This document shows, piece by piece, positions 7,533-56,462 of a DNA stretch of 64,000 nucleotides. Below the pieces are notes generated by a model that was not told the DNA's origin, did no database searches, and was given only the letters and a program-made list of their open reading frames with translations. Source of the stretch: Camelus dromedarius (taxonomy: Eukaryota). How positions within the stretch are numbered: the first letter of the stretch is position 1; the number at the start of each line of letters is the position of its first letter. Location of the stretch: NCBI RefSeq assembly GCF_036321535.1, contig NC_087436.1, positions 77,316,001 to 77,380,000 on the forward strand, in the 5' to 3' direction. The translations under genes and the position numbers were made by a program.

Positions 7533-7768
7533 TTTTTTTAATATATTTTTATTGAAGTGTAATCAGTTTACAATGTTATGTTAATTTCTGGTATACAGCA
7601 CAATACTTCAGTCATATAGGAACATACATATATTCATTTTCATATTCTTTTTCACCGTAAGTTGCTACAAGATATTGAATGTGGTTCCCTGTGCTATACA
7701 GTATACACTTGTTGTTTATCTATTTTATATATATTAGTTAGTATCTGTAAATCTCAAACTCCTAATTT
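7533..7768 (-). mobile_element. Young cetartiodactyl-type L1 3' end
   Basis: T-run, then attgaagtgtaatcagtttacaatgttatg...gttccctgtgctatacag; homologous to 29787-29967 and to the reverse complement of part of 8309-8714. Confidence 0.85.
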
Positions 7769-8308: not shown

Positions 8309-8714
8309 TATCATACTAAGTGAAGTAAGTCAGACAGAGAAAGACTAATATCACAATATGATATCACTTATATGTGGAATTTAAAAGCATGATACAAATG
8401 AACTTATTTATAAAACAGAAATAGACTCACAGACAGAAAGCAAACTATGATTACCAAGGGGGAAAGGAGGGAGGAGGGATAAATTAGGAGTTTAGGATTA
8501 ACAGATACAGACTACTATATGTAAAATAGATAAACAACAGGGACCTAATGTATAGCACAGGGAACTATATTCAATATCTTGTTATAAGTTATAATGGAAA
8601 AGAATCTGAGAAGGAATATATATATGTATGACGGAATCATTTTGCTGTACACCTGAAGTTAACACAACATTGTAAATCAGCTGTAAAATAAATATGTATA
8701 CTTCAATAAAAATG
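8309..8714 (+). mobile_element. 5'-truncated L1 3' end with TSD
   Basis: catactaagtgaagtaagtcagacagagaaagac...cttcaataaaaa, flanked by the direct repeat TATATTTGAT at 8299-8308 and 8715-8724. Confidence 0.9.
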
Positions 8715-13024: not shown

Positions 13025-14542
13025 ATTTTATATTGTGGTAAAATACATGGAACATAAAATTTGCTTTTTTACTTTTTTTACTTATACAGTTTAATGGCAT
13101 TAAGTACATTCATATGGTTGAGCAGCTATTCATACCATCCATCTCCAGGACTTTTTCATCTTTCTGAACAGAAACTTTGTACCCATTAAACCAAAACTTC
13201 TCATTTCACAATAACTAGCCTCCACCCCTGGGAACCAACCTTCTACTTTCTACCTCTATACATTTGACTACTCTGGGTACCTCATGTAAGTAAAGTCACA
13301 TGCTATTTATCATTTTGTGTCTACTTACTTCACTTAGCATGGTGTCTTTAAGGTTCATCCAGGTTGTCACATGGGTCAGAGTTCCATTCCTTGTTAAAGC
13401 TGAGTAATGTTCCATTGTATGGATATACCACATTTTGTTTATCCATTCGTCTGTCAATGGGCACTTGGGTTGCTTCTACCTTTTGGCTTTTGTGAATATG
13501 CTATGAATATGGGTGTCAACATACCTGTTCAAGTCCTTGCTCTCAATTATCTGGGGCATATACCCAGAAGTGGAATTGCTGGATCATATGGCAGTTCTAT
13601 ATTTCACTTTTTGAGGAACTGCTATACTGTTTTTCATAGGGGCTATACCATTTAAATTTCCCACAAGCAATGCTCTAATTTCTCCACATCCTTGAAGACA
13701 CTTTTTATTTTTTGTTTTTGTTTTTGTTTTTGTTTTTTATAGTAGTCATCTTGGTTGATATGAAGTAGTATCTCCTTGTGGTTTTGATTTACATTGCCCT
13801 AATGATTAGGCATGTTGAGCATCTTTTCATGTGCTTATTGGCCATTTGTATGTTTTCCTTGGAAAAATGTTTATACAAGTTCTTTGCCTTATTTGTTAAT
13901 AGGAGTTGTTTGTATTTTTGTTGTTGAACTATAGAAGTTCTTTTATATATTATGGATATTAATCTCTTATCATATATATGATTTGAAAATATTTTCTGTT
14001 TTACGAACTGCTTTTTCACTCTGTTGGTAGCATCCTTTGATGTTCAAGTTTGTAATTTTGATAAAGTCCAATTTATCTACATTTTTTTGCCTATGCTTTT
14101 GGTGTCTTATCTAAGAAATCATTGCCAAAATCAGTGTCATGAAGTTTTTCTCCCTTTCTTCTAAGAGTTCTATATTTCCAGATCTTATGTTTAGGTCATT
14201 GATCCATTTTGAGTTCAGTTTTTGATTATGCTATAGGGTAAGGGTCTAACTTCATTCTTCTGCATTTGGATATCCAGTTTTCTCAACACCATTTGAAAGA
14301 CTGTTGTTTCTCCATTGAATTACTTGGTACCCTTGTTGAAAATCTTCGACCATACATGTGAGGGTTTATTTCTGAGCTCTCCCATTCTGTTGGTCTGTAT
14401 GTCTCTCTTTATGCTGGCACCATAACTGTTTGATTACTTTGTATTAAGTTTTGAAATCAGGAAATATGAGATCTCCAACTTTGTTCTTTTTCAGAGTTGT
14501 TTTGGCTATTTGGGGTGCCTTGAGATTCCAGATGAATTTTAG
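13025..14542 (-). mobile_element. L1MB-like LINE, 3' UTR plus end of ORF2
   Basis: Antisense L1 3' end; ORF 13789-14019(-) translates to L1 ORF2 C-terminal-like sequence (KIFSNHIYDKRLISIIYK, FSKENIQMANKHMKRCST). Confidence 0.93.
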
Positions 14543-28879: not shown

Positions 28880-29778
28880 TCAAAGTCATTGGGAACCACT
28901 GAAGCAGGGAAGGAAGCCATCAGAATTTAATTTTAGATAGATCCTTTTGGTGGGATTAGGGTAGATGCATTGGAAAGAACTAGAAGCAAAGAATGTAGTA
29001 ATCATACAGGTGAGATGAAATGAAAACATGAAGAGATTTGTTAGGTATATACGAACTAAAATGAGCAGAATTTGGTATATTACCCCGATAAAAGAAGTGA
29101 AGGAAATTGAGAAGTTAAAGGTGACTTTCACCTTTCTGGCTTCCAAGCTGAGATCAGTAGAGTAAAGTGGTTAAATGCATAGGCTCCAAAGGCAGAATAC
29201 CTGGTTTTACTACTTCCTAGCTGTGTGACCTTGTACAAGTTACTTAGGCCTGCTTTTTCATTAGATATAGGTAGTAATTACTTCCTAGGATTTTTTGGAC
29301 CACTAAGTGAGTTAATGTTTGTAAATACTTGGAACAATGCTTGGCACAGAGGAGACATTCAGATAGCTTTAGTTATTACTTTTATAGTTTGTGGTTAAGA
29401 TAATGCTTGTTGTTATTTTAATACTATCAAATGGATGGTAGTGGTGCCCCTAGTTGGAACGGGCAATAGAAGAGGCAAAACATACTTGAAAACTAAGGCA
29501 GTGTTTTAATTTAACATTACTGAGTCTGAGGTGCCAGTCATATATCCAGGTAGAGACGTACAGCCAGAAGATGAGCCTGTAGTCCTAGCAAGGGCTCTGG
29601 CTAGAAGAACATGAATAGGAAAAATTGCCTTCTAAAATTTTGCTAGGTTTGGGGAACTAAACGGAAACCAGTGCATTCAGGAATAAATAAAATGAGAATG
29701 TGGTGACAAGAGGTTTGGCATATTTGTTCAAGAAGTTGTAAATGAGAGAAAACTATGTATGGCAGTAGCTAGAGAGAC
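28880..29778 (-). mobile_element. L2 LINE fragment split by a MIR
   Basis: gttaaaggtgactttcacctttctggctt, resuming after the MIR as ggatggtagtggtgcc...tgagtctgaggtgccagtcatatatccagg. Confidence 0.7.
29153..29385 (+). mobile_element. MIR SINE
   Basis: gtggttaaatgcataggctcc...cttcctagctgtgtgaccttgtacaagttactta...aatgcttggcacag. Confidence 0.85.
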
Positions 29779-29786
29779 GGAGAATT

Positions 29787-30130
29787 TAAAAAAAAATTTT
29801 TTTTATTGAAGTATAGTGAGCTGACAATGTTGTGTCAATTTCTGGTGTGAAGTATGTTTCAGTCATCCATATACATATGTATATTTCTTTTTATATTCTT
29901 TTTCATTATAGATTACTACAAGATGTTAACTATAGTTCCTTGTTCTGTACAGTAGAAACTTGTTTATCTGCTTTTGTGAGGCTTCTCCTTGTATTTCCAA
30001 TGTAAGAGATATTCTGCCAAAGTTCAGTAGGTATTCAGGGTGAATTGTTCCATATGTAGATGTAGTTTTTGGTGTATTCATGGGAGAGGGTAAGCTATGC
30101 ATCCTTCTCCACCATCTTGGCAATCACTCA
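29787..30130 (-). mobile_element. Internally deleted (possibly spliced) mini-L1: 5' end fused to 3' UTR, TSD-flanked
   Basis: Minus strand reads CCAAGATGGTGGAGAAGG...ACATCTACATATGGAACAATTC (L1 5' end), then CAG|ATAAACAAG...CTTCAATAAAA (L1 3' UTR and tail). Direct repeat GGAGAATT at 29779-29786 and 30131-30138. Confidence 0.85.
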
Positions 30131-30289
30131 GGAGAATTCTTTTAGTAAAAAAAAATTTTTAATAGAATTTTAAAATATTTTAAATAGAAATAGAATAGAT
30201 TTTATATATTTGTAGACTGAGCTTCTAAGAAGCCAGAGAGGGCAAGGAAAGAAAAATATTTAATAAAAATCTAAATTAAAACTAATATT

Positions 30290-30490
30290 AATTATTTACT
30301 ACTGAAAAGACATATTTGTTTTGTGTCAGCCACTGTTCTATGCACTTACACACATTATCTCTCTGGACCTTCAGAACCAAGCAAGATGGGTTCTGGATGT
30401 GGAAGCTTGGAGTTTGAGAGTAAGCTGGAGTGTGTAGCCTTGCACCCAGGACCACTTGGTACCCAAGTTCATGTCTCTAAGCACTGTACT
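30290..30490 (-). mobile_element. MIR SINE (degraded)
   Basis: catatttgttttgtgtcagccactgttctatgcacttacacacattatctc. Confidence 0.6.
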
Positions 30491-53579: not shown

Positions 53580-56462
53580 TTATACCTGACCACTGTGGAG
53601 TAATGGGGACCAGATTTACCTCCCTTATGAAACAACTAAAGAAAGTAGATAAAACATATGAAACAACAGTTGTCCTGACATTGGATATCAGGAAACAAAG
53701 GGCAGTTACCCCTGAAAAATGGAAAATAAGTGAGATGTGCCCCACAATTTTCCCAAATCACTGCCTAGAGAAAGTGCCTGGGTTGCAGTGCAGGGAGGGG
53801 AAACCCAGAAGTCTCCATGAGTTGAAGAGATGAAGCTGGTAGTCTGGGAAGGCCAACGCCGCTGTGGTTCACCGGGCAGTAGACTGGAGAAGAGCAGGCC
53901 ACACAGAGAGATGACATCTAGGTCTGTGGAGGGCCCCTCTCAAGCAGTCAGCTGAGTATCAGTGATGCATGTGGGCAGCTTTCCTGGAGTGGGAGGAATT
54001 AATTACCTGAAAGGATGACAAGGAACAGGCTTTAAAGCCAATGCAGGGCCACTAGCTTGAGTGGAAAAACCTCACAATTCACAGAGCATCAGGTAGAATA
54101 CTCAGAGGGGATTTGCCTCGGTAATAGGAAAAATTAACCCTAGACTAGATGTTGCTCTTGGCCCACCTAACAAAGCAAAAACTGAATGGATGAAACTAAT
54201 TTAAGTAATTGGACAACTTTCCAGAATAAACTCAAGAATATTTATAGGAATACAGAAATATTCAGCACCCAAGAGGTAAAATTCAGTCAGGCATCTAATA
54301 GAGATCACAAAAAATAAAAAAGAAACAGGAAAATACTACAGATAATAGGTTCTATTGAATGAGGAGAAAAGTCAGCCAACAAAACTGACTCAGGATTGAT
54401 ACAGATGAGGGAATTAGTGATCAATAATGTTAACATTTATTACTTATGATCCATATATTCAAGAAATTAGAGAAAAGACTGAACCAATGTTAAGTAAAGA
54501 GAAGTTTTTTAAATAACCCAAATTGAACTTCTAGTGAAAAAAAAGTGTTGAAATGAAAAATATTTTGGATAGGATTAAAAGTAAATTAGACATTGAGGGA
54601 AAAATACAAGCAAAAAAGACACAGTTGTTGAATTAACAATAGAATCTGTACAGAACTAAACACAGAAAGAAAAAAGCACGGAAAAATGTGTGGCAATTCT
54701 GTAAGCTGAGGGATAACTTCAAACAGACTAATATACGGGCAATTTAAATTAACAAAAGAGAGACAGGGAAGAAAAAAATATGAGAAATAATGCTGAAAAA
54801 TTCCAAATTTGATGGAATCTATAAACCCACAAATCCAGAAACCTCAATGAACTCCAACTGTAAGAAGTATAAAGAAAATTACACCAAAGTACATCAGAAT
54901 CAAATTTCTTAAAGTGAGTGACAGAGAAAAAATTTCTTAAAAGCAGCAGAAGAGGGGAAGGAGAAAGAAGATACATTATATCCAGAGAGACAAAGGTAAG
55001 GAAGACAGGATATTTCTGGTAGGAAACAATGCAAGTGGGAAGACACTGGAAAAATACCTTTAAACAACTGAAAGAAAAATGTCAACCAAGAATTTTTTGA
55101 CCCAACCTTTACCCAGTTTACCCAAAATTATCATTCAAGAAACTAGCAAAATAAGATTCTCAAACATAGAAAAGCCGAAGTAATTCATCATCAACTGACC
55201 AGTACTACGAGAAATGTTAAGGGAAGTCATTTAAGCAGGAGAATTATACCAGACAGAATCCTGGATGTACACAAAGGAATGAAGAATACAAAAAATGATA
55301 AGTACTTTGGTAAACAGAAAGATTTTTAAATTTATTTCAATATGTTTAAAATATAATCAACTATTTAAAGCAAAAATAATGACAATTTGTGGGTTTTCTA
55401 ACACGTGCAGAAGCATAATCCATACAAGGAAAACTGAAAAATTGTACTTCATGAAAATTAAGAATGTCTATTCTTCAAATGATACCCTTAGCAGAATGAA
55501 AAGGCAAGTCACAGACTTGGAAATACTTTTAAAGCATATATCTGATAAAAGACTTGGATCCAGGCTATATAAAGAACTCTCAAAACTCAATTATTAGAAA
55601 ACAAAGAAGGCGATAATAAAAGCAGGCAATTGACTTGAACAGGTATCTTACCAGAAACAGTACATGGATGGCAAAGAAACACTTGAAAAGATGTTCAACA
55701 ATAATAATCTCACTAGGAAAATACAAAGTAAAACCATAATGAAATACACCTCACACCTATCAGTATAGCTAAAATAAATGACTGATCATATCACCTTTTG
55801 GCAAAGATGTGGAACTCTCATTCTCTGCTAGTGGGAATGTAAAATAGTACAATCACTTTGGAGAATTTTTTTGACAGTTTCTTATTGGTTAAATATTCAT
55901 CTACTATATGAATTAGTCATTCTCCCAGTTAGTTATCAAAAAGAGATGCTCATACAAACACTTGTACGTGGTCATTGGAGCATGATTCATAACAGCCCCA
56001 AACCGGAAACAACCCAAATGTCCGTTAACAGGCTAATGGATAAAAAAGCAGTAGTGTAGACATAGAAAGGAATACTAAGCAAAAAAATCCCAAAAAACAA
56101 ACAAACAAAAAACAATAAATTGCTGATCCATGTTACAACATGGGTGAATCCCAAAATGATTATGCTGAGTGAAAGACGCCAGATAAAAGAGTCCATAAAT
56201 GATTCTATTTATACAAAATTCTAAAAATGCAAACTAATCTATAGTATAAGAAAGCAGATCTGTGATTGTCTCGGGATGAGAGGTTGGGGAGAGGTGGGAG
56301 AAAGATCATACAAGGTGAAAAGAAAGGTTTTGGGGTAATAGGTGTGTTCATCATCCTTACTGTCAGTACAGTTTTATGGATTTTATGCAGGCAAAACCTA
56401 AATAATGCACTTTAAATATGTGCATATTTTAATGTATGTCAATGATACCTATTAAAATATAA
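53580..56462 (+). mobile_element. L1MC/MD-like LINE: 5' UTR and ORF1 joined to ORF2 end and 3' UTR
   Basis: 5'-region motifs (ggagtaatggggaccagatttacc), ORF1 remnant (54650-55290), then ORF2 C-terminus (RMKRQVTDLE...HISDKRLGSRLYKELSKLN) and a 3' UTR ending near 56460. Confidence 0.85.

Follow-up and report, generated by a model that had tools for sequence, protein, structure and literature searches.

How an L1 element can come to consist of its two ends alone, inserted as one piece, is the question raised by a short repeat in a 64-kb stretch of dromedary DNA (hereafter the window). The repeat occupies 344 bp on the minus strand (30130–29787), where 163 nt of L1 5′ end are joined to 181 nt of L1 3′UTR and tail; there is no ORF of note within it and both L1 ORFs are missing. 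A preliminary description had proposed this arrangement, a 5′ end abutting a 3′UTR inside one direct repeat and lacking the ORFs, and it is confirmed on the sequence. The unit is a real, multicopy, ORF-less L1 derivative and most likely a spliced retrocopy.

The unit and its insertion

The features, all on the minus strand, are given below in the 5′ to 3′ direction of the element; in this and other motifs a slash marks the point of the break or cut.

30131–30138, minus strand: 5′ copy of the target-site duplication, an exact match over 8 bp that may reach 30143 or 30160
29968–30130, minus strand: L1 5′ end (start of the 5′UTR), the putative first exon, homologous to the 5′UTRs of pig L1B10 and L1B12 and multicopy in genome runs
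30112–30119, minus strand: CAAGATGG, a motif at the L1 start
29967–29968, minus strand: junction CAG/ATAAAC, its left side homologous to a donor-like G/GTA site of pig, its right side following an L1 3′UTR AG
29802–29967, minus strand: last part of the L1 3′UTR with AATAAA (29807–29802), the putative second exon, recognized by similarity to the window's L1 3′ ends
29787–29801, minus strand: decayed poly(A) or A/T tail, from the sequence
29779–29786, minus strand: 3′ copy of the target-site duplication, an exact 8-bp repeat

The motif CAAGATGG at 30119–30112 is presumably a YY1-type core. The same motif opens the pig L1B and L1C entries in supplementary file 1 of PMC6501411, and the 5′ part of the element can be taken as L1 because it is collinear with the 5′UTRs of pig L1B10 and L1B12 given there, to which it is about two-thirds identical in a by-eye comparison. 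Self-comparison found no second copy of this 5′ part within the 64 kb, and in the same comparison just two other L1 3′ ends of the type carried by the element came to light, at 7546–7768 and 8481–8712; these share 76% and 81% identity with the element's 3′ part. The unit is, on the divergence of its sequence, an old insertion, since it differs at 14 of the 125 positions where both of these comparators agree (11%) and its 163-nt 5′ part has a CpG count of 0.

An 8-bp repeat of this kind is found by chance at 1.15% of 20,000 randomly chosen pairs of positions separated by 345 bp. A longer duplication is possible because a 15-nt A/T run is common to 30160–30146, upstream of the element, and 29801–29787, in its tail, so that the original duplication may have measured 13 bp, its 3′ copy having decayed, or about 30 bp, 7 bp of it having since been lost. 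Both of the longer readings start at a T/AAAA site, of the type described as L1-endonuclease-like in the accessible text of PMC5860796. The tail, the duplication and the endonuclease-like site, which are marks of retrotransposition, are thus all present in the unit. A loose 22-bp A/T-rich tandem repeat at 30150–30208, which adjoins the insertion site on its upstream side, makes the left end of the duplication hard to place.

The 5′ break

The nearest parent L1s used for reading the donor position are pig L1B and L1C, from the available part of the PMC6501411 supplement, rather than the camel parent itself. The spacing is collinear. From CAAGATGG to the break there are 152 nt in the window, 152 nt in L1B10 and 156 nt in L1B12, the pig figures being hand counts, and from the end of CTACTGAAC there are 54 nt to the junction in the window and 55 nt to G/GTAG in L1B12 as the supplement gives it. 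At the corresponding place in the pig file ACATAACTGG is followed by GTA at 18 of 18 matches and ACATTACTAG at 5 of 5, all 23 coming from related consensus sequences and so not being independent events; as background, GT(A/G) stands at 2.3% of window positions. Because of this collinear spacing and of the GTA after every one of the pig motif matches, the 5′ break is judged to sit on a conserved donor-like dinucleotide, as read in the pig homologue.

CAG is the consensus end of a donor exon, and the last three bases of the element's putative first exon are CAG. Contigs resembling the parent cease to align at 29964–29972, which fits a GT donor and does not itself reveal the GT. The preliminary description had predicted that GT would follow the 5′ breakpoint in the parent: it does so at the homologous position in pig L1B and L1C (23 of 23 motif matches in the portion available), and there only, and for the camel parent L1 a GT at this point would be the natural expectation.

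The G/GTA about 155 nt into the 5′UTR is kept in both L1B and L1C of the pig file despite base changes nearby. Related L1s may carry this pig site as a latent donor, paired with different acceptors from one lineage to another.

The 3′ break

The two comparators in the window are these.

7546–7768, minus strand: 5′-truncated L1 3′ end with TACTAAC at 7743–7737 and AG at 7721–7720
8481–8712, plus strand: second L1 3′ end with the same AG at 8528–8529 and without TACTAAC

Both read AAAATAG/ATAAACAAC at the homologous point (2 of 2), which bears out the earlier claim that the 3′ breakpoint falls directly after an AG present at two other L1 3′ ends of the window. In the 7546–7768 copy the branch A of TACTAAC lies at −19 from the break with no intervening AG. 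The heptamer also stands at the matching place in the consensus of the loose ends of eight run-X19 contigs whose match to the element extends as far as the AG (agreement 0.69). Such an arrangement is rare, as TACTAAC occurs at −15 to −45 from 16 of the 8416 AGs in the window (0.2%), and just 4 of the 8416 are the first AG downstream of a TACTAAC. No polypyrimidine tract precedes the AG, the preceding 15 nt being A/T alternations and an A run, and the acceptor is unusual in combining a perfect branch point with the lack of a pyrimidine tract. At the 37 sites where the comparators differ, the element has the base of the 8481–8712 copy at 20 and that of the TACTAAC copy (7546–7768) at 12.

The acceptor appears to be lineage-specific and not common to pig, because the two pig 3′UTR entries available have GG rather than AG at the homologous point; there is no branch-point match in these two entries. 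Were such a lineage-specific gain of the acceptor real, it would amount to a change in the 3′UTR switching on a latent 5′UTR donor that is also present in pig L1. The two L1 3′UTR types of the window, 7546–7768 and 8481–8712, differ at the branch-point position, and since TACTAAC is present in one of them only, the comparison suggests a gain or loss of the acceptor signal from one L1 subfamily to another.

The same join at other loci

Assembled contigs of four public runs were aligned to 29600–30320 at 80% likeness. A contig was taken to bridge the junction when at least 31 nt matched on each side of it, and a looser count used 20 nt. The records from other loci that bear on the join are as follows.

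X5 (DNA run), record 18: aligned over 29888–30105 with 34 differences and 80 nt to the right of the junction; bridges by the 31-nt rule
X15 (RNA run), record 2: aligned over 29931–30056 with 18 differences; bridges by the 31-nt rule and may be the locus of X5 record 20
X5, records 19 and 20: aligned over 29948–30091, 20 nt past the junction, the contigs ending 8 and 5 nt further on
X5, record 21: extends 8 nt beyond the junction, its remaining 20 nt unaligned
X5, record 22: extends 7 nt beyond the junction, its remaining 58 nt unaligned
X5, records 23 and 24: lead into unlike sequence of 4.9 kb and 0.4 kb, as expected of parent L1s

The early ends of records 19 and 20 are what a high-copy 3′UTR would produce by breaking the assembly there. 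The junction is crossed by at least 20 nt in 3 of the 7 other-locus X5 records listed, representing three distinct loci, the listed records being the longest of 9477 and hence biased towards those that cross. Records 19, 20 and 21 reappear in run X8 with equal difference counts (19 and 20 as X8 records 27 and 26). The junction-crossing X5 records look like separate insertions, since they have single-locus depth (17.5–19.8, as against 20.5), the crossing contigs from other loci differ from the window by 14–16%, and the 1.5–3 kb flanks of records 19 and 20 do not align to the flank of the window locus.

The same join is therefore found at at least three other loci, and its copy number is probably in the tens. 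Relative to a single locus the summed depth is about 310–485-fold over 30000–30049, 64–102-fold over 29975–29999 and 35–57-fold at 29982, values that form a rough ceiling including parent L1s and give no copy number, with copies less than 80% alike being missed. Among the outcomes named beforehand as speaking against splicing were the lack of a GT in the parent and a join present once in the genome; a GT is present in the nearest parent examined, that of the available pig file, and the join is not single-copy, being identical in the contigs of these other loci.

Sequencing depth dips at 30200–30224. In the RNA run X15 a 2129-nt contig matches the unique flank 29600–29782 without differences, perhaps because this part of the window is intronic or because the library contains DNA; contigs of that run, whether from the flank or across the junction, say nothing about whether the element is transcribed and are left out of account as regards expression.

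Origin of the unit

Splicing from 5′UTR to 3′UTR would explain the donor position, the AG, the branch-point match, the exact recurrence, the tail and the duplication alike, and so a spliced origin is for the unit as a whole the best explanation, one that we hold to be probable. A full-length L1 would be transcribed from its own Pol II promoter, and the spliceosome would join a GT donor some 160 nt from the start of the 5′UTR to an AG some 170 nt upstream of the poly(A) site, so that the remainder of the 5′UTR, both ORFs and the beginning of the 3′UTR would be excised as a single intron. The resulting short, polyadenylated, non-coding RNA would be reverse-transcribed in trans by the proteins of other L1s, with target-primed reverse transcription leaving the tail and the target-site duplication. 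The process would have recurred, the simplest course being that parent RNA was spliced repeatedly, as with the human spliced integrated retrotransposed elements of L1, or SpIREs (Larson et al. 2018, PMC5860796, in the text available). That such splicing of parent L1 RNA took place repeatedly in the germ line, each copy then being largely a dead end, has in our view an even chance of being correct.

Several points count against splicing. The donor GT has been read only in pig and not in the camel parent L1; the acceptor is without a polypyrimidine tract; and the 8481–8712 copy is without TACTAAC, yet it is with that copy that the element more often sides. Of the seven listed X5 records from other loci, two run on unlike the element and two pass the junction by just 7–8 nt. 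An RNA without ORFs would, furthermore, have no cis preference to aid it.

A spliced origin could also have had another sequel, in which one or a few short copies whose 163 nt retained sufficient promoter function gave rise, as masters, to a Pol II-transcribed and L1-dependent family without ORFs. Such a course, which we regard as doubtful, would demand promoter function of the 163-nt piece, a putative property. Start motif, poly(A) signal and tail are all retained in the unit; at least three other loci have the join, with a summed depth just left of the junction 35–57 times (at 29982) and 64–102 times (over 29975–29999) that of a single locus (rough figures, parents included); and bipartite LINEs without ORFs do amplify in RTE, Ingi, Vingi and R2, according to the accessible text of PMC5786205. 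Less favourable is the human precedent, as the promoter of SpIRE97/622 is weak, 7-fold over empty vector against 267-fold (PMC5860796, in the text available), and the gap counts hint, by a weak inference, at several parents with short and with 3-nt-longer 3′UTR starts (record 19 versus records 18 and 20). In its fullest form this proposal, for which our confidence is low, has a single splicing event occurring after the L1 3′UTR of the lineage gained the AG and perfect branch point, and founding a 344-bp ORF-less Pol II retroposon whose family was copied via L1 proteins; it would be SINE-like and the first ORF-less bipartite family of the L1 clade. If true, there would be a SINE-like self-copying family in a lineage otherwise poor in young SINEs, contrary to the 2018 statement, in the part of that paper available (PMC5786205), that names RTE, Ingi, Vingi and R2 only. 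The preliminary description had offered both a spliced L1 retrocopy and a self-propagating, SINE-like parasite; the former is supported, by the donor-like GT in pig and the branch-point match at −19, and the latter is as yet unsupported, as the data do not separate amplification from a short master from repeated splicing.

The join could instead have been made without splicing, by a microhomology-guided deletion of DNA or a template jump of reverse transcriptase, and then copied or made again. The contexts of donor and acceptor are loosely alike (A runs, AG, TA, AACAA), which would suit a deletion as well; the AG at the break and scattered identities are common to the two contexts, as read in the window and in pig. 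Known bipartite LINEs are ascribed to internal deletion in the accessible text of PMC5786205, and the lack of a polypyrimidine tract at the acceptor also speaks for such an origin. This origin, a serious rival on account of that likeness of contexts, is nevertheless unlikely, as the break falls precisely between the G that ends the exon and the GT on one side and, on the other, behind the first AG downstream of a perfect branch-point match, the spacing left of the break equals that of the 5′UTR (4 nt after the A run, not 3), and deletion gives no reason for TACTAAC at −19 or for an identical position at other loci.

A one-off deletion in a long L1 after its insertion here, spread by segmental duplication, or an artefact of assembly, is highly improbable: none of the listed contigs of the window locus in the four runs spans its junction, and no empty-site joint was seen in 4 of 4 runs (as expected for an old fixed insertion, and so not discriminating), but the other joined loci differ by 14–16% and have long flanks unmatched to this locus, and 14 of the 24 listed runs, 7 of these 14 being flagged as a possible source, contain 95–99% of the sequence words of 28.5–31.5 kb. 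Chance juxtaposition of two L1 pieces is rejected because of the shared duplication and the same join elsewhere, and a tRNA-headed SINE because the head is L1 5′UTR and the window has no Rfam match.

Relation to known elements

A spliced L1 retrocopy has its closest counterparts in the human SpIREs. In the available text of PMC5860796 there are 131 copies, about 2% of full-length L1s and spread over several subfamilies, with weak promoters, and they are described as dead ends. The unit resembles them in keeping the L1 5′ end, in a break early in the 5′UTR (in the unit at a putative donor, its GT read in the pig homologue), in an AG acceptor, in its tail and target-site duplication and in having the same junction at several loci. 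The human classes described there have acceptors at 620, 788, 851 and 974, in the 5′UTR or early ORF1, and keep ORF2, whereas the acceptor of the unit is in the 3′UTR, both ORFs are gone, the whole is 344 bp and both proteins would be needed in trans. Judged by published descriptions, the unit appears to work like a SpIRE but to fall outside the described classes.

A literature search returned, among the matches listed, no description of an L1 family spliced from 5′UTR to 3′UTR, most subscription papers lying outside its scope. Belancio et al. 2006 reportedly may list human L1 acceptors nearer the 3′ end. A spliced unit of this kind would extend L1 self-splicing from the human 5′UTR and ORF1 classes to loss of the whole coding region, and to another mammalian order, and such copies would preserve in the genome a record of the germ-line production of ORF-less L1 RNA and of its mobilization in trans. 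Counting and tree-building could address whether L1 can found ORF-less bipartite families, and whether splicing, not deletion, can found them.

The bipartite ORF-less LINEs (Bov-A, RTESINE, RIME and Vingi-N) are listed for RTE, Ingi, Vingi and R2 only, and are ascribed to internal deletion, in the available text of Kojima 2018 (PMC5786205), where the word stem 'splic' has 0 occurrences. Like the unit they consist of just the two ends of a LINE, encode no protein, have a Pol II type of head and occur in several copies; the parent of the unit is instead an L1, its join looks spliced and its self-amplification is only a proposal. HAL1 (half-L1) is likewise a non-autonomous L1 derivative with both L1 ends, but it retains ORF1 and the unit has no ORF (PMC5786205 and PMC4494074, both as available in part). 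Pig L1B and L1C (Chen et al. 2019, PMC6501411), which share with the unit a homologous 5′UTR start and the G/GTA at the break position, are in the available entries full-length elements, and two of their 3′UTRs have GG and no branch-point match at the acceptor point. The accessible part of bioRxiv 10.1101/2025.02.02.635956 deals with chimeras of mRNA and L1 and with a single SpIRE that a host promoter had reactivated.

By the definition of SINEBase (PMC3531059, in the text available), a SINE has a Pol III head from tRNA, 7SL RNA or 5S RNA. The unit fails this definition, its head being L1 5′UTR and the window having no Rfam match. ALPINE1 and ALPINE2, which we take to be Repbase names of short alpaca interspersed repeats, could cover the unit or its 3′ part; neither name occurs in the literature searched.

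Sequence context

Pattern scans for further copies gave 0 and 0 matches in viral contigs and 0 and 0 in prokaryote genomes, and plasmid and phage collections held no match to the element. Five metagenome pattern matches are chance ones, with unrelated flanks and no BLAST match to the element. The element's motifs had no match in the available parts of the supplements of two L1 surveys, PMC5203782 (2 files) and PMC5381506. No Rfam match was found in the 64-kb window and no Pfam match among its 20 candidate open stretches, and no host gene was found in it. Self-comparison of the window gave 6 repeat pairs of at least 50 bp with no abundant young SINE, a lack that fits the description of camelid SINEs as nearly all MIRs in the accessible text of PMC8605555. 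Two old repeat fragments of the window, at 13410–14077 and 55436–56072, lie in opposite orientation and are 67–72% alike; by strand skew they are probably L1. The stretch at 38–42 kb is strongly T-skewed, like an antisense L1 remnant.
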